From IMG/VR virus record IMGVR_UViG_2698536657_000019: a stretch of 8,788 bases of DNA, one strand, 5' to 3'. The stretch is from a virus (taxonomy: Duplodnaviria; Heunggongvirae; Uroviricota; Caudoviricetes). Below, one piece after another: positions 1 to 8,788 of this stretch. A program made the translations under genes and the position numbers. The stretch's first letter is position 1. Each line of letters opens with the position of its first letter. Below the pieces are notes generated by a model. That model saw nothing but the letters and a program-made list of their open reading frames with translations, had not been told where the DNA came from and did no database searches.

Positions 1-297
1 GGCTTCAGATACCAGTGTTGGCGGATTTTCGTGTTTGTGCCGCGCCAGTTTTTCCAGCCTGATCCGACGCTCTTCGTCGTGGTAAAGATGCGAATTAATT
101 CGCTTCCCTTCGTCTGTGGTTGTCAGGAAGGCGACGGTTTCTTCATCCAGTCTGGCGTCAGTGCGAATATCCTCGTTGATGTAGCTCTGAATGGCCTGGC
201 GTAATGCGGTTGGCTGCGCTCTGCCGAACGTTTCAGGATCGATAACCGGTAGCGGGGCGTTCCACGGGTACGCCAGTTGTGCATTATGGTCGCTCAT
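1..297 (-). CDS. hypothetical protein, partial (start at 297, continues past the window start)
   Basis: ATG at 297..295 overlaps the TGA stop of the upstream gene (ATGA). The frame stays open for 99 codons to position 1. Not in the ORF track because no stop lies in the window. No recognisable motif. Confidence 0.45.
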   Translation of the reverse strand, partial: MSDHNAQLAYPWNAPLPVIDPETFGRAQPTALRQAIQSYINEDIRTDARLDEETVAFLTTTDEGKRINSHLYHDEERRIRLEKLARHKHENPPTLVSEA

Positions 298-710
298 GCG
301 TCGCACTCCCCGGCAGTCGCCGCCTGAAACGCCGCGCGGTACAGCACGAGAAGGCGCTGGTATTCACCGATAAAGTCTTCTGCGGTGTATATGCCTTTCA
401 TGGCCACGCTGTGCGTTGTCATTTCCAGAACAAGCGTCATCTCTGACGACGACCAGCTGATGGCGGTGCTGTCGGTTCCGTTGATGTGAAATAAACCAAA
501 ACCATCACCATCACCTTTCACGTCCACGCGGTAACGGTCGTCAACGGTGAAGGAGAAATCCCCGTATGTGGTGACGCGTCTGGCGGCCCGTTTACAGGCG
601 CGGCGGTAATAGTCGTGCCAGTCGTTCAGGCGGGAAGCCAGCCGGGGATCCACTGCCCACATCCAGTTAAAAAAATCCTGAATATCTGAAAGTCCCTTAA
701 CGTTCTTCAT
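294..710 (-). CDS. hypothetical protein, 138 aa
   Basis: ORF with SD GGAGG about 5 nt upstream of ATG 710. Its stop overlaps the next start (ATGA at 294..297). No recognisable motif. Confidence 0.6.
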   Translation of the reverse strand: MKNVKGLSDIQDFFNWMWAVDPRLASRLNDWHDYYRRACKRAARRVTTYGDFSFTVDDRYRVDVKGDGDGFGLFHINGTDSTAISWSSSEMTLVLEMTTHSVAMKGIYTAEDFIGEYQRLLVLYRAAFQAATAGECDA

Positions 711-778
711 GAGAACCTCCGGTAACAGACGTGCGGAAGCCTCCCGCGCACGGGTGCGGGATGGCTTCAGGATGTTGT

Positions 779-1006
779 TTAGTGGTGGTGTTGCTGGTTG
801 ATAAGGTCCTGCAGTTCTGCCAGGTCTTCGGCCAGATAGCTGAAGACTGCCGCGTAATACCCGGCAGCGATACCGTCGTTAAGTCGGTGTAATACGTTTG
901 ACTGCATGATGAAGGAGACAGATGCAGCCCGATGGAGTCTGCGGTTGATTTCAGTGCGGATGTGAAGACGCTCAGCGCGGGCGCGCTGTTGTTTGCGGTT
1001 TGCCAT
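779..1006 (-). CDS. hypothetical small protein, 75 aa, Arg-rich N-terminus and acidic C-terminus
   Basis: ORF with GAGG about 8 nt upstream of ATG 1006. First gene after the minus-strand terminator at about 1190. Confidence 0.5.
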   Translation of the reverse strand: MANRKQQRARAERLHIRTEINRRLHRAASVSFIMQSNVLHRLNDGIAAGYYAAVFSYLAEDLAELQDLINQQHHH

Positions 1007-1180
1007 GGTGTGGCCTCGTACGTAGTAAGTTCTGAAAACTCACCAACCCGAGGTTCCAAGCTCAGGGTGGCGAGACGTACAGGGTTGGAACTACCGGCTA
1101 CGCACGAACCCGGCCCGACCGAAGTCGGCCCCGTACGCCCCGCCATAATTCTGACGTGAAAAAGACGTGGCGATACAGTA

Positions 1181-1211
1181 CGCACAAAAAAACCGCTGGC
1201 GCGGTTGTGCG
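1181..1211 (-). terminator. candidate rho-independent terminator on the minus strand
   Basis: Minus strand reads AACCGC-GCCA-GCGGTT followed by a run of 7 T (plus strand A7 at 1186..1192). Flanking CGCAC/GTGCG extends the palindrome. The stem is short. Confidence 0.4.
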
Positions 1212-1389
1212 CGTGCATAGTCGGCGGGGTTCCAATCCCGGCACCTGTTTTATGAGGTGCGGGAAAACTGTAACCCGACCAGGCGAACGCTGGCAAGCGG
1301 TTTTTGTGTTGCGTGCTGATGTGGTTAGAATGTGGCGAATTAATATCACCTGGCAACTGGTGATTGTCTGCATACGCGGGGTGTTTCTG

Positions 1390-1854
1390 ATGAGTGATAA
1401 GCTCCCTTCTGATTACGACATTCTTTTTGACCTGTGGTACAGCTACTGGCTTGAACGTATTACATGTGTGTTTCACCGACGCGTTTCTGCTGCTCTGCGA
1501 ATCAGCGCCTTTCTGGTTGGTGTTGCGGCGTTTGTCCTGTGTGATTTTGTTGTGTTGGTACTCTTCAGTGTGGTTCTGTTTCTGCTTTGGCAGTGCATGG
1601 CTGCCAGTTTTGAACGCAGGGCTGAAAAGGCTGAATGGCAGGCAGTCAGTTACCAGCGCCTTATCAGTCAGCGCCATGTGATTAGTAAGGAATGCATGAT
1701 TGCGCGCCTCTCCTTTGTTGAGGAAAGTGACAGTCCCATCATGGAGTGCATGATTAATCTTGCCTGGAATAAAGCCTGTGAGGCGGTTGGCAGCTCTTCG
1801 CGCAATCATGTTTCGATCTCCGGTCGGTTACTCAGTCGCCTGTGCGGCTTTTGA
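1390..1854 (+). CDS. putative membrane protein, 154 aa, convergent with the early operon
   Basis: ATG at 1390. Hydrophobic stretch ISAFLVGVAAFVLCDFVVLVLFSVVLFLLW, CTG-dominated Leu codons. Possible promoter TAGAAT at 1326..1331. SD is weak (GGGG 9 nt upstream). Overlaps the 3' end of 1828..2178 by 27 nt. Competes with a minus-strand ORF starting at 1809 that has its own SD. Confidence 0.35.
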   Translation: MSDKLPSDYDILFDLWYSYWLERITCVFHRRVSAALRISAFLVGVAAFVLCDFVVLVLFSVVLFLLWQCMAASFERRAEKAEWQAVSYQRLISQRHVISKECMIARLSFVEESDSPIMECMINLAWNKACEAVGSSSRNHVSISGRLLSRLCGF

Positions 1855-2655: not shown

Positions 2656-3636
2656 TCACGTACTGGCAGGGGTAAACATCACGCAGTAAGTTGCATCTCC
2701 CGTTACCGGTCCGCAGTCCGGGCAGTAGCCACCGCCATAGTGACCGCAGGCGTCGCACTGTCTCAGGGTGGCGATAACTTCCGGTGCTGGTTCGCGGGTT
2801 CTTGCGCCAACGCTGCGTGGTGCCTGTATGCAGTTCATCCGGTAACCCTGATAAATGCGTCTGGTTTCCGGTGTGTCGGAATTGGAGATGGTGATGCTGG
2901 TCATGCCGCCCGTTTCCTGCGAAAGGCGGTCAAGTGCTGCCCTCAGGCGAACGTGCTCGTGTTCATCGAATGGTTTTCCGTAGGCGGTGAAATTGTCCCG
3001 GCCACTGAATTGCAGGTAAGGGGGATCGCAGTACACGCAAAGCGTGTTGCCCATGCCGAACAGGTGACTGGCAGAGTTCAGCGTATCCTTAAAATCTGCG
3101 TGGATAAGCAGCGTTCGGGTGCTGTTTGCCTTGTCTGCAAATGCGCGGATTTCATGCTCAGGGAAATAGGGCTTGCGGTAGCAGCCGAAAGGCACGTTAA
3201 AATCGCCTTTTCCGTTCACCCGGTACAGGCCATTAAAACAGTGCCGGTTGAGGTACAAAAACATGGCGGCCAGTCGCAGTTCACGGCGGTCGCTTATTCC
3301 CGTTCTGCTACTCAGGAAGGCATGATTCTCTGCGTTAAAGGTTTCGCGAATGATGAGATAGTCACCCCTGTTGTTGTGGTTCAGGAACAGGGTTTTCGCC
3401 TCGTCGATCAGACTGTCTGTGTTGTCCCGTGCTGCCCGCCAGAAATTAATCAGCGCACCATTGGAATCACCCAGGATGTAGCGTTTGTAACTGGTGTTCA
3501 TGAATACCGATGCGCCACCCACGAACGGTTCAACCAGGCAGTCAGCTTCTGGCAGATGCACCTTCAGTGTGTTCATGATGCGGCTTTTGCCACCCACCCA
3601 TTTCAGCGGTGTGCCGGATAACAGTTCTTTGCTCAT
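2656..3636 (-). CDS. Dam-family N6-adenine DNA methyltransferase with a C-terminal Cys-rich extension, 326 aa
   Basis: Motifs LKWVGGK, CLVEPFVGGASVF (SAM-binding FxGxG), FLYLNR--FNGLYR, FNVPFG-YRKPYFPE, catalytic DPPY (VYCDPPY), NFTAY. These line up with E. coli Dam from memory. C-terminus has CDACGHYGGGYCPDCG (C-x2-C-x7-C-x2-C). SD AGAGG upstream of ATG 3636. Confidence 0.85.
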   Translation of the reverse strand: MSKELLSGTPLKWVGGKSRIMNTLKVHLPEADCLVEPFVGGASVFMNTSYKRYILGDSNGALINFWRAARDNTDSLIDEAKTLFLNHNNRGDYLIIRETFNAENHAFLSSRTGISDRRELRLAAMFLYLNRHCFNGLYRVNGKGDFNVPFGCYRKPYFPEHEIRAFADKANSTRTLLIHADFKDTLNSASHLFGMGNTLCVYCDPPYLQFSGRDNFTAYGKPFDEHEHVRLRAALDRLSQETGGMTSITISNSDTPETRRIYQGYRMNCIQAPRSVGARTREPAPEVIATLRQCDACGHYGGGYCPDCGPVTGDATYCVMFTPAST

Positions 3637-3660
3637 AACGCGGCCTCTTTGTTATAGGTT

Positions 3661-3861
3661 TCATGCGTTAATAAATCCCATGACTTCCCGTTGTTCTTGC
3701 TGAGTAATCGCCAGCGAAAACCGATTCTTATCACCAGGTAGTTGTGGGGCTTTATGCGTGAAAAATTCCGCACACCGTTGCGGAATAAACGCAGCGATGC
3801 GCGGGCTTTTCTTTCCACGTTCAGGGGGGGGGCAGCAACACACATTCAGGATGGCGACCAT
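3661..3861 (-). CDS. hypothetical small protein, 66 aa; frame uncertain because of an internal C9 homopolymer
   Basis: SD GAGGTG 5-6 nt upstream of ATG 3861, directly after the exonuclease stop. Contains a C9 tract (plus strand G9 at 3824..3832) encoding CCCPPP. The overlapping 3633..3845 frame is also open. Confidence 0.45.
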   Translation of the reverse strand: MVAILNVCCCPPPERGKKSPRIAAFIPQRCAEFFTHKAPQLPGDKNRFSLAITQQEQREVMGFINA

Positions 3862-6351: not shown

Positions 6352-6777
6352 TTAAGCTGCTTTTTTACTGATACGTTTATTCCGTAAACCAGCTGCTGGC
6401 TTAAATAAAAAAAGTCGGTTTTCCCATTCGTGCCATTCTTGCGGTGCGTTTTCAGTGAGTCGATCGCAGGCTTCATCCCACGCTTTCCGGTTGATGTAGA
6501 GTTCGGCGTTTCCGCCAGGCTTGAGAGGGTCCGCCATGTACACAGCGGGTAATTTCCCTGCTTTTGCCATGCTCACGATGGCGTCAACGGTCTTGCCGAT
6601 ATACATCGCAAACCCTTCTTTTGACAGGAGATGAGAAGGGTTTTGTGAAAGCCTGATTTCCTGGCGTTCAGGGGCTTTGCGCCCGGTCTTTTGGTGTGCG
6701 GTTTCTGGCGCATCTGTCAACTGATCGCACTGTGTTTCGGCAGGCGATTCAGGCGCGTTTTGAGTGACTTCTTGCAT
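6352..6777 (-). CDS. cox: Cox-like excisionase / transcriptional regulator with an N-terminal extension, 141 aa
   Basis: C-terminal half (FAMYIGKTVDAIVSMAKAGKLPAVYMADP...AW) resembles P2 Cox (FAKLIGK...GKLPVIDMTDP...AW) from memory. Start set at ATG 6777 with strong SD GGAGGA about 7 nt upstream. Divergent from the repressor. Confidence 0.75.
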   Translation of the reverse strand: MQEVTQNAPESPAETQCDQLTDAPETAHQKTGRKAPERQEIRLSQNPSHLLSKEGFAMYIGKTVDAIVSMAKAGKLPAVYMADPLKPGGNAELYINRKAWDEACDRLTENAPQEWHEWENRLFLFKPAAGLRNKRISKKAA

Positions 6778-6884
6778 CTGGTATCCTCCGTTATTGGTGC
6801 TATTTCTATTTAGCACCAGTTAGAGCCGCCTAGATTGTCTCTAGGTGTGTTTGTTGATGTATAAACTAAGAGAGTTAACTCACT
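6778..6884. promoter_or_regulatory. immunity switch region between cox and the repressor, with operator-like repeats
   Basis: 107-bp intergenic region between divergent cox and C. Perfect inverted repeat TGGTGCTA-N8-TAGCACCA (6795..6818), CCTAGA-N5-TCTAGG (6829..6845), TAG motifs phased at about 10 bp (6811, 6821, 6831, 6842), and a -10-like TATAAA (6860..6865) upstream of C. Confidence 0.6.
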
Positions 6885-7184
6885 ATGTCAACTAACGTAG
6901 GTGAAAAAATTAGAATCATGCGTAAGTCTGAAATGCTTACACAAGAAAAAATGGCTGAAATTACAGGGCTCACGGTAGCGGCCCTGCGTCAATATGAACA
7001 GGGGAGAAATGAGCCAAATCTTGAATCCACAAAAAAGCTGCTCAAGTCTCCCGTCTTCCGTAAATACCGTGACTGGTTTTTGTTCGATGAGGTCGAACCA
7101 AAGGCCGGGCAGGTGGTACCGGCTCTCGCACACATTGGGCAAAGCGAAGCGGAATCATCCCACTCCGGCAAGAAGACTGGTTAA
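6885..7184 (+). CDS. C: P2 C-type immunity repressor (XRE-like HTH), 99 aa
   Basis: 99 aa, HTH segment LTQEKMAEITGLTVAALRQYEQG, C-terminus APALAHIGQSE...SHSGKKTG resembling P2 C as remembered. Lies immediately upstream of and co-oriented with int. Confidence 0.8.
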   Translation: MSTNVGEKIRIMRKSEMLTQEKMAEITGLTVAALRQYEQGRNEPNLESTKKLLKSPVFRKYRDWFLFDEVEPKAGQVVPALAHIGQSEAESSHSGKKTG

Positions 7185-7250
7185 CGGTCCATCTGGCCTT
7201 TATTTCTCAAAATTGTGATCAAGATGATGTTTTCATTGGGGGGCTTCCTT

Positions 7251-8246
7251 ATGTCGATTAAGAAGCTCGCTGATGGCAAATACTGTGTGGACGTGCGGCC
7301 TGCTGGATCTGAAGGAAGAAGATTTCGGCGGCGATTTCCTACCCGTGGTGAAGCGGCGATGTATGAACGCCATGTTCTGACGCATTATCACGATAAGGAC
7401 TGGGTCGAAAAACCTATTGAACGTAAAGCGTTAAGCGATCTTCTGGAACTGTGGTGGGTGTACCACGGTAAGAATCATCGTTATGGCGCGATGAATCGGG
7501 TCAGAATTGAAGCGGTTCTTCGTGATATGCAAGAGCTTGGTATTAACAGAAGTGACCACTTAACCCGAAAAAATATTATCAGATATCGCCTTGAATTAAT
7601 GAATCGCGGAATTAAGCAGTCAACGGTAAATCGTTATTGTGCAATGATGAGCGGTTTCTTTGAAAAGCTGATTGATGTTGAAGAGTTTGTGGGTGATAAC
7701 CCGTTTCACGAGATACGCAAGCTAACAATTAATCAGCCGGAAATGGCTTATCTTGCACATGATGATATTCCCAGGCTAACCGCACTTTTATCTGGCGATA
7801 ATCTTAAGGCTGTATTGTTAAGCCTGGCTACAGGCGGGCGCTGGGGTGAAGTTGCCAATATTAAAGGTGAACACATAATTGGTGGGAAGGTTATTTTCAT
7901 GGAGACAAAGAATGGATCGCGGCGGGTTATTCCTATAGCTAAAGATCTTGAATCTCTGATTAAAGTCAAAGCGACGGGAAGATTAATGAACCCCAGTTAT
8001 GCGATAGTCAGAAGTGCAATAAGGACTGTGCGGCCTGATTTACCAGTCGGTCAGTCTGTGCATGTTTTACGGCACACATTCGCAACTCATTTCATGATAA
8101 ATGGAGGGAACATTATTACCCTTCAGCGTATTTTAGGGCACAGCACAATTCAGCAGACAATGACCTATGCGCACTTTGCACCTGATTATCTCCAGGACGC
8201 GGTAAGGTTCAATCCGGTTGCGGAGTTGTCCAGATTTTGCCCATAA
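7251..8246 (+). CDS. int: P2-like tyrosine integrase, 331 aa
   Basis: N-terminus MSIKKLADGKYCVDVRPAG parallels P2 Int. Catalytic motifs TGGRWGE, HVLRHTFATHF, LGHSTIQQTMTYAHF (Tyr nucleophile). Start moved from the ORF-track GTG 7215 to ATG 7251. Confidence 0.9.
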   Translation: MSIKKLADGKYCVDVRPAGSEGRRFRRRFPTRGEAAMYERHVLTHYHDKDWVEKPIERKALSDLLELWWVYHGKNHRYGAMNRVRIEAVLRDMQELGINRSDHLTRKNIIRYRLELMNRGIKQSTVNRYCAMMSGFFEKLIDVEEFVGDNPFHEIRKLTINQPEMAYLAHDDIPRLTALLSGDNLKAVLLSLATGGRWGEVANIKGEHIIGGKVIFMETKNGSRRVIPIAKDLESLIKVKATGRLMNPSYAIVRSAIRTVRPDLPVGQSVHVLRHTFATHFMINGGNIITLQRILGHSTIQQTMTYAHFAPDYLQDAVRFNPVAELSRFCP

Positions 8247-8363: not shown

Positions 8364-8494
8364 CGATGTATCTCGCGATTTTTTTTTGTAACTTTTCCAT
8401 CTTTTGCTTTTCTCTCCGAGCCGCTTTCCATATCTGCAATCGCATAAAAAACTCTGCTGGCGTTCACAAATGTGCAGGGGTAAAACGTTTCCTG

Positions 8495-8536
8495 TAGCAC
8501 CGTGAGTTATACTTTGTATAACTTAAGGAGGTGCAG
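8495..8536 (+). promoter_or_regulatory. chpS promoter/operator region with SD
   Basis: Perfect inverted repeat AGTTATAC-TTT-GTATAACT (8505..8523) overlapping a -10-like TATACT (8508..8513). SD AAGGAGG (8525..8531) 5 nt before ATG 8537. Confidence 0.4.
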
Positions 8537-8788
8537 ATGCGTATTACCATAAAAAGATGGGGGAACAGTGCAGGTATGGTCATTCCCAATATCGTAATGA
8601 AAGAACTTAACTTACAGCCGGGGCAGAGCGTGGAAGCGCAGGTGAGCAACAACCAACTGATTCTGACACCCATCTCCAGGCGCTACTCGCTTGATGAACT
8701 GCTGGCACAGTGTGACATGAACGCCGCGGAACTTAGCGAGCAGGATGTCTGGGGTAAATCCACCCCTGCGGGTGACGAAATATGGTAA
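8537..8788 (+). CDS. chpS: ChpS (ChpBI) antitoxin, MazE/AbrB-fold, 83 aa
   Basis: Translation MRITIKRWGNSAGMVIPNIVMKELNLQPGQ... matches E. coli ChpS as remembered. Its stop overlaps an ATG at 8783 (ATGGTAA) that would begin chpB (MV...), cut off by the window end. Confidence 0.9.
   Translation: MRITIKRWGNSAGMVIPNIVMKELNLQPGQSVEAQVSNNQLILTPISRRYSLDELLAQCDMNAAELSEQDVWGKSTPAGDEIW

Follow-up and report, generated by a model that had tools for sequence, protein, structure and literature searches.

We identified the minus strand of positions 1007-1296 as, very probably, an IsrK-C4 RNA immunity cassette of the P1/P7 immI and P4 type, carried by a P88-like, P2-family prophage of E. coli. The window, by which we mean the whole stretch of 8,788 nucleotides that was analysed, is the left arm of this prophage. 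The architecture of the cassette, the complementarities between its parts, the covariation of these parts in related loci and the position of one of the target boxes (a2) on a ribosome-binding site were all shown at the level of the nucleotide sequence. By analogy with the characterized systems, the cassette most likely holds the anti-repressor gene of the prophage off. The system as such is already known, and its presence here was found by existing models.

A promoter and two structured RNAs in place of a protein gene

A preliminary description of this DNA had recognized no convincing protein gene in positions 1007-1389. This holds, and two full-length Rfam families are found on the minus strand instead. 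The same description had proposed an Rfam scan; when applied to the whole window, the scan matched isrK and the C4 antisense RNA over the full length of both models and well above the curated thresholds. The region was also correctly described as GC rich, with 57.5-61% GC in 1001-1300 versus 46-57% in the adjoining stretches, and the 263 nt from 1262 to 1000 gave a folding z-score of -5.3 against shuffled sequence. In the closest complete E. coli genome, no gene is annotated by RefSeq over the equivalent of 1007-1329, and a tRNA/tmRNA scan returned no matches.

A sigma-70-like scan placed a putative promoter, P_isrK, at 1267..1296 on the minus strand. It has 9 of 12 consensus matches and consists of the -35 hexamer TTGCCA (1296..1291), an 18-nt spacer and the -10 hexamer TACAGT (1272..1267), with an A-tract upstream. 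Transcription from P_isrK is predicted to start at about 1260, which is the first base of isrK. In 12 related loci, the -35 hexamer was invariant and the -10 hexamer was either TACAGT or TACATT. A similar pair, TTGCCT / TATAGT, stands at the equivalent place before the seqA element of P4 and corresponds to the P4 promoter P_LE. Inspection by eye of the surroundings of the promoter and of the spacer described below did not reveal a LexA box (CTGT-N8-ACAG).

The IsrK sRNA itself (RF01394; 1186..1260, minus strand), which corresponds to the seqA element of P4 and the a1b1 element of P1, was matched with 67.1 bits against a threshold of 50 (E = 5e-13) and over model positions 1-77 of 77. Its minimum free energy (MFE) fold contains three hairpins and is only modestly better than that of shuffled sequences (z = -1.82). 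Downstream of a 5' hairpin (1260..1241), box b1, UUGGAAC (1235..1229), occupies the loop of the second hairpin, and box a1, CUAUGCACG (1220..1212), lies 3' of the b1 hairpin. The element ends in an intrinsic terminator detected by a terminator scan, with a stem at 1206..1191 and a U-run that extends to 1186. This isrK terminator is the minus-strand terminator that had been noticed previously; it is flanked by CGCACAA/TTGTGCG at 1181-1187 and 1205-1211. Both the promoter and the terminator of isrK are conserved in relatives at the sequence level.

A second Rfam model for this kind of element, c4-a1b1 (RF03163), matched at 1273..1221, overlapping the 5' half of isrK, with a score of 26.3 bits that is below the threshold of 46.7. 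The b1 hairpin of this model is present, and the 5' part of the model lands on the promoter. The upstream element is better described by the isrK model than by the c4-a1b1 model. The c4-a1b1 score of P4, 44.1, likewise falls just short of 46.7.

The isrK terminator is separated from C4 by a 35-nt spacer (1151..1185, minus strand), which would be transcribed only upon read-through of the terminator. The spacer is nearly invariant among the P88-like relatives, and a promoter scan did not detect any convincing separate C4 promoter within it.

The C4 antisense RNA, a homologue of the CI RNA of P4 (RF01695; 1063..1150, minus strand), was matched with 82.6 bits against a threshold of 45 (E = 1.4e-15), over model positions 1-87 of 87, and has a GC content of 66%. 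It is built from a 17-bp closing stem around a UUCG hairpin (1128..1115) plus a second hairpin with a large loop (stem 1114..1110 / 1097..1093). The loop of the second hairpin displays box a', CGUGCGUAG (1106..1098), and box b', GUUCCAA (1091..1085), is single-stranded and located 3' of this hairpin. When C4 was folded alone, the MFE structure was identical to the Rfam consensus, with an energy of -48.5 kcal/mol and a z-score of -3.95 versus shuffles. In a set of 15 distinct relatives, every one of its internal helices was 100% paired, and some of the changes in them were compensatory.

Two inverted repeats that the preliminary description had pointed out can now be assigned. The GTTCCAA/TTGGAAC repeat is present at 1053-1059 and 1085-1091 and represents target box b2 together with b' of C4. 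The CCGAC-CGAA-GTCGG hairpin also exists on the plus strand and is the UUCG hairpin of C4 read from the opposite strand, but it lies at 1115-1128, so that its earlier placement at about 1111..1125 was off by about 4 nt. Finally, the region had been suggested to be an sRNA, a regulatory leader or a promoter; we find all three together, in the form of a promoter, a terminated IsrK, an antisense C4 and a regulated leader.

The regulated leader and the operon behind it

The leader of the downstream operon (1007..1062, minus strand) contains b2, a second site complementary to C4, and a2. Box b2, UUGGAAC (1059..1053), is situated in a hairpin loop and is predicted to pair with b' of C4. The motif GGGUUGG (1049..1043) is complementary to CCAACCC of C4. 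Box a2, CUACGUACGAG (1025..1015), covers the Shine-Dalgarno sequence GAGG (1017..1014) and ends 8 nt ahead of the start codon ATG at 1006. The separation of b2 and a2 is 27 nt, versus 8 nt for b1 and a1, and the two complexes would therefore differ in geometry.

The first regulated gene (779..1006, minus strand) encodes a 75-aa protein of the P4 epsilon family that database sources label "derepression protein." It matched phrog_3688 with E = 2.8e-32, and a BLASTP comparison with P4 epsilon gave 36% identity over 50 aa (E = 4e-9). The Pfam match to PF25738 was marginal, with 29.1 bits versus a cut-off of 27; the P88 orthologue scored 31.8 bits and P4 epsilon 170 bits with the same family. The epsilon (E) protein of P4 binds and inactivates the C repressor of P2 (PMC2995052). 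On the basis of these similarities, the 75-aa protein is a putative anti-repressor of the P2 C-type repressor of the prophage.

The second gene of the operon (294..710, minus strand) encodes a 138-aa protein that belongs to phrog_3237 (E = 7e-52), a family with no function assigned, and that had no Pfam, NCBIfam or PADLOC match; PADLOC and NCBIfam searches with the neighbouring proteins did not give any matches either. The third gene (1..297, minus strand) is cut by the window edge, and its 5' end was assigned to a replication endonuclease of the P2 gpA family. Where contigs carry an identical module, the end of the 138-aa gene is overlapped by a gene for an 837-aa product that has the Pfam domain Phage_GPA; RefSeq gives this gene the name "replication endonuclease." This gpA gene has the same orientation as the cassette, and the gene junctions are short or overlapping.

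On the other side of the cassette, a convergent plus-strand gene (1390..1854; phrog_6315) lies between the cassette and the early operon, which includes DUF4761, DUF4754, an exonuclease, a ParE-like gene and a Dam methylase. The remainder of the window contains Cox (6352..6816, minus strand), a 99-aa helix-turn-helix (HTH) repressor of the P2 C family (6885..7184, plus strand) and an integrase (7215..8246, plus strand). The 99-aa repressor shares 92% identity with its P88 counterpart and 44-47% with the C proteins of WPhi and other P2-like phages. At the DNA level, the module has about 85% identity to P88-like phages of the genus Xuanwuvirus, and copies identical to that of the window are present in two E. 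coli assemblies, GCA_017727275.1 and GCA_014327545.1.

Covariation of the boxes in related loci

The preliminary description had also called for a covariation analysis across related prophages, and in related phage loci we observed that a' and b' co-vary with the upstream as well as the downstream copies of their targets. A search of genome contigs with the 75-aa protein alone recovered 2 loci; the comparative set was built instead from a degenerate C4 pattern, in which a' and b' were left free and which was searched in viral contigs. This search yielded 120 loci, of which 92 were distinct and which represented 57 different combinations of a' and b' alleles. With few exceptions among these combinations, a' and b' were complementary to sites in both flanks. 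The mean best runs of cognate pairs were 8.4 and 9.3 for the a boxes and 7.2 and 6.9 for the b boxes, versus 5.1-6.2 for non-cognate pairs. An a2 box with a nearby ATG could be located in 54 of the 57 allele types, and its end preceded the ATG by 1-11 nt, or by 4-11 nt if a single type is set aside.

The downstream gene of the window was found in 36 of the loci, which comprise 34 distinct P88-like sequences. Variation in these 34 sequences was concentrated in b1, a1, a', b', b2 and a2, and the backbone was almost invariant. Formal pair counts were made on an alignment of 16 sequences (A1). Double-sided changes occurred at 7 of 9 positions for the a1-a' pairing, with 100% of cells paired, and at 7 of 9 positions for a'-a2, with 97.8% paired. 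For the b boxes, double-sided changes were found at 4 of 7 positions both in b1-b' (100% paired) and in b'-b2 (97.1% paired). A slid control, in which the 3' partners were moved by 1-3 columns, gave 38-46% paired, a comparison that is somewhat favourable because the structure was taken from the window sequence. The number of distinct compensated pair types, which reached five per position, is independent of the origin of the structure.

Duplex prediction with RNAduplex gave -31.7 kcal/mol for the C4 segment of the window with its own leader, versus -13 to -21 kcal/mol with eleven other alleles. The 49 nt spanning a' and b' of the window were found at 100% identity in only one of 5426 complete E. 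coli genomes, and all four target boxes match this rare allele. Since the four boxes still fit the rare a'/b' allele, ongoing selection on the pairing is indicated. Two contigs encode a 138-aa downstream protein identical to that of the window and carry a different a/b allele. The a'/b' allele of the window is also present in E. coli strain Bongo (NZ_CM153263.1). Another allele, TTCGCAG / CTAGCAAAG, is carried by locus L002, and the duplex energies predict that it and the allele of the window would not cross-repress.

Relation to the immunity systems of P4, P1/P7 and Gifsy-1

An "IsrK-C4 immunity system," in which IsrK equals seqA and C4 equals the CI RNA, has been described for P4, P1, P7, N15 and lambdoid prophages (PMC3632133; also PMC4825925 and PMC10111431). 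At least one GenBank phage record annotates an isrK-C4 tandem (LC710660.1). The layout of P4, P_LE - seqA - CI RNA - seqC ... epsilon ... alpha, agrees with that of the window in its parts and their order, and the order and roles of the boxes are equal. In the P4 genome, Rfam matched isrK at 8692..8615 (60.8 bits) and C4 at 8507..8420 (74.9 bits). The P4 boxes are b1, GTGAGAA, and a1, TTCACAGG, in the isrK element, and a', CCTGTGAA, and b', TTCTCAC, in C4; b2 of P4 lies in a hairpin loop, and its a2, ATTCACAGGAGG, lies on an AGGAGG Shine-Dalgarno sequence. P4 and the window also share an epsilon-family gene (PF25738) and a replication gene in the operon behind the cassette.

However, several differences from P4 were observed. 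In P4, another small ORF comes first after a2 and epsilon starts about 245 nt after C4, whereas in the window the epsilon-like gene is the first one behind a2. For replication, P4 has the alpha primase gene and the window the gpA endonuclease gene, and the box sequences differ between the two. Moreover, P4 is a satellite, whereas the cassette of the window resides in a P2-family phage that is of the helper type and encodes a C repressor of its own.

The immI region of P1/P7 (a1 b1 - c4 - a2 b2 - icd - ant) is similar to the window in having targets on both sides and in belonging to the same Rfam C4 family. PMC8198154, which cites Citron & Schuster 1990, describes an antisense RNA that arises by processing of the leader of the very operon under its control, a downstream target that covers the start of the first ORF and a regulated product that is an anti-repressor of the main repressor. 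The stable C4 RNA of P1/P7 is processed by RNase P and acts in trans to confer immunity (PMC11143913, which cites Hartmann 1995). The anti-repressors themselves are unrelated, being Ant1/2 in P1/P7 and the epsilon-like 75-aa protein in the window. In contrast to P1/P7, no icd-like gene was identified in the window, and the upstream element carries its own strong isrK-type terminator and reaches only 26.3 bits with c4-a1b1.

The isrK - orf45 - anrP arrangement of Salmonella Gifsy-1 is comparable to that of the window in that an isrK-type element precedes a C4-like segment and an anti-repressor gene lies downstream. In Gifsy-1, a single promoter gives rise to a terminated IsrK as well as to a read-through isoform, and the middle hairpin of IsrK is complementary to the C4-like segment (PMC4825925). 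The short ORF orf45 of Gifsy-1 starts from a conserved AUG in the C4-like segment and is translationally coupled to anrP, whereas the frame in the window has no stop ahead of the next gene and runs 149 codons to position 697. The families of the anti-repressors also differ between Gifsy-1 and the window. Descriptions of the role of IsrK are themselves divergent, as it is needed for lysogeny in P4 and is an activator in Gifsy-1 (PMC4825925 for Gifsy-1).

Proposed mode of action and competing functional readings

From P1, P4 and Gifsy-1 we infer that some of the transcripts initiated at P_isrK would end at the isrK terminator and yield IsrK, and that read-through transcripts would be processed to give stable C4, as is done by RNase P in P1 (PMC4825925 and PMC11143913). 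C4 would then pair with b2 and a2 and prevent the epsilon-like 75-aa protein from being translated. Expression of the 138-aa gene and of gpA would in turn be lowered, either by polarity or by premature termination. As long as the anti-repressor was kept off, the C repressor of the prophage would go unchallenged; otherwise, it might be inactivated in the way that P2 C is inactivated by the E protein of P4. IsrK has the boxes of the target and may therefore be able to compete with it for C4, which is its role in Gifsy-1 (PMC4825925). Alternatively, IsrK could represent an upstream pairing site, like seqA in P4. The sequences of the a and b boxes would set the immunity type of each phage and thus the specificity of the system.

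There is a real but minor chance that the same cassette works mainly by C4-dependent premature transcription termination, in the mode of P4, and that its main role is the shut-off of gpA and not the control of the anti-repressor. The layout is co-linear with that of P4, in which pairing of CI with seqA and seqC halts transcription before the replication genes (PMC4825925). The downstream position of gpA, its shared orientation and the short or overlapping junctions would also suit this mode. However, nearly all allele types, that of P4 included, have a2 placed on the Shine-Dalgarno sequence, which argues that a translational step comes first. Furthermore, a scan of the minus strand from 1062 to 700 did not find any intrinsic terminator. 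Translation block and termination are not mutually exclusive modes, and in P1, the block of translation leads to Rho-dependent termination.

It is quite improbable that IsrK acts mainly in trans, as an Hfq-binding sRNA on host mRNAs, and that its proximity to C4 is incidental. Such a role would be in line with the description of isrK as an Hfq-binding RNA in Rfam, with its U-rich 3' end and with its own terminator; Hfq binding and a read-through isoform carrying the target were shown for the IsrK of Gifsy-1 only (PMC4825925). However, b1 and a1 co-vary perfectly with b' and a' of C4, and both boxes vary between near-identical prophages, which fits a phage-internal partner and not a conserved host target.

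Consequences for annotation and possible helper-satellite relations

The main value of the finding lies in annotation, since the region is blank in RefSeq for the closest complete E. coli genome, is called "ash family protein" or "transcriptional regulator" in other records and is really made up of two RNA genes and their targets. The cassette explains the probable gating of an epsilon-like anti-repressor and of a replication gene in P88-like P2-family prophages. Moreover, the six co-varying boxes provide a clean natural case of an antisense system that switches its specificity. The current understanding of the IsrK-C4 system is unchanged by the finding.

The co-linearity with P4 hints at an exchange of modules between helper and satellite. 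A further proposal, which we consider a long shot, is that, in P2-family phages of the helper type, the hypervariable a and b boxes constitute an "immunity type" layer made of RNA that P4-like satellites have in common with them, and that the isrK-C4-epsilon block has moved between lineages. If this were true, the CI RNA of a satellite with a matching allele could silence the anti-repressor/gpA operon of the helper, or the C4 of the helper could silence the satellite, and the cassette would be a weapon in helper-satellite conflict. In the sample examined, none of the loci outside the P88-like group had an a' loop in common with this group.

Open frames across the cassette

The preliminary description had reported a 370-codon open frame on the minus strand (697..1809) and had doubted that it encodes a protein. 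The frame exists, and the doubt was justified, as the frame does not represent a conserved gene. We regard it as extremely unlikely that this frame, or an "Ash family / transcriptional regulator" protein running through 1002..1272, is a real gene. In favour of such a gene, besides the openness of the frame, residues 164-286 match PHROG "transcriptional regulator/repressor" families (E = 3e-19 to 9e-11), and residues 180-269 weakly match the Pfam family Phage_ASH (PF10554). In addition, a 326-aa product across the region was predicted by one gene caller on an identical contig, and the names "ash family protein" and "transcriptional regulator" are given to the region in some GenBank as well as RefSeq records.

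However, the Phage_ASH score of 19.8 bits is below the cut-off of 26, and the matched stretch (nt 1272..1002) is exactly isrK, C4 and the leader in translation, with no family matches outside residues 164-286. The family is defined by a P4 ORF formerly called "cI protein," which scores 59.7 bits with Phage_ASH and shares its DNA with the CI RNA. The immunity of P4 was shown to be RNA-based. CI is described as an RNA in PMC4825925 and PMC3632133. Substitutions in the region preserve RNA pairing yet change the boxes radically. The upstream two-thirds of the 370-aa frame contain many stops in relatives with other upstream DNA and are antisense to a plus-strand gene with its own family support, and the frame overlaps the 75-aa gene out of frame. 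A frame beginning at the AUG of C4 ends at scattered stops across the wider family. We conclude that the 370-codon frame is an artefact and not a gene.

Equally unlikely is the reading of the region as only a promoter and a terminator between operons, with the RNA-family matches as decayed relics, since both Rfam matches are full length and far above threshold, all helices are intact and the four target boxes still fit the rare a'/b' allele.

We also considered an upstream ORF of the orf45 type starting from the C4 AUG (1146), and rejected it as a conserved ORF on account of the scattered stops in the wider family and of the shuffling result given below. In the checked P88-like relatives, this frame (1146 to 697, 149 codons) is open to +441..447 in all but one (L061, with a stop at +429). 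Synonymous-codon shuffles of the 75-aa gene left the frame open in 2-68% of trials, so that its openness is not significant. In several lineages, the end of the frame and the beginning of the next gene overlap by ATGA.

Protein families and annotations overlapping the RNA module

The minus-strand region that holds isrK, the C4 antisense RNA and the leader (window 1002-1272) was compared, in translation, with protein family collections. We observed matches to the Pfam family Phage_ASH (PF10554) and to PHROGs 995, 821 and 6928, which are described as "transcriptional regulator/repressor". In P4, the member of these families is the obsolete "cI protein" ORF (L129, 8168-8584), which overlaps the CI RNA, the P4 counterpart of C4. 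Conserved RNA genes appear to underlie PF10554 and the three PHROGs as "protein families". PF10554 served as the epsilon marker in one satellite survey (PMC8628076), whereas the family that P4 epsilon itself matches is PF25738.

Two further annotations over the module look like artefacts. One is a 326-aa gene-caller product that spans isrK, C4 and the 75-aa gene (L125, 2034-3014) in a public assembly whose module is identical; the other, in the record of P88 itself, is a 63-aa "hypothetical protein" encoded antisense to the RNA module (L001, 4132-4320).

A 149-codon frame opens at a conserved AUG inside C4 (window 697-1146, minus strand), crosses the 75-aa gene (779-1006, minus strand) out of frame and ends just beyond the start of the 138-aa gene (294-710, minus strand). 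It recalls the translated orf45 of the Salmonella Gifsy-1 isrK locus. The frame was free of stops in all P88-like relatives checked but one, and in several lineages its end forms an ATGA overlap with the start of the next gene. Since synonymous shuffles kept it open in 2-68% of trials, the frame is probably open by chance.

Variation of the boxes and an inverted repeat at the promoter

Two contigs, L127 and L128, encode a 138-aa downstream protein exactly identical to that of the window and yet differ from window 1007-1262 in the a/b allele at all six boxes (b, TTTCCAC; a, AACCAAAG). The boxes are thus swapped between loci or diversify at a higher rate than the flanking genes.

We also found a 17-nt inverted repeat with 88% complementarity (window 1184-1200 versus 1293-1309): the A-tract plus CCGC that immediately precedes the -35 hexamer is complementary to the isrK terminator in its 3' half. 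The P88-like relatives all share the A-tract-CCGC-TTGCC string unchanged, whereas P4 lacks it. The string may be a UP element; alternatively, it could serve as an anti-terminator on transcripts that enter the region from upstream.

Neighboring genes

Immediately upstream of the cassette, and convergent with the early operon, lies a plus-strand phrog_6315 gene (1390-1854, start possibly at 1330). Its hydrophobic 154-aa product (174 aa from the earlier ATG) had no match in PADLOC, Pfam or NCBIfam. Because different genes occupy this position in P88, it may be a variable cargo site.

A contig labeled Vagococcus sp., a Gram-positive genus (L003, NZ_JBQPOM010000071.1), encodes a homologue of the enterobacterial derepression protein (75 aa) at 64% identity; this may reflect contamination or mislabeling.

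In the early operon, a minus-strand gene for a 70-aa protein with a ParE-like toxin domain (3633-3845) lies directly upstream of, and overlaps, the Dam-type methylase gene (2656-3636, minus strand).
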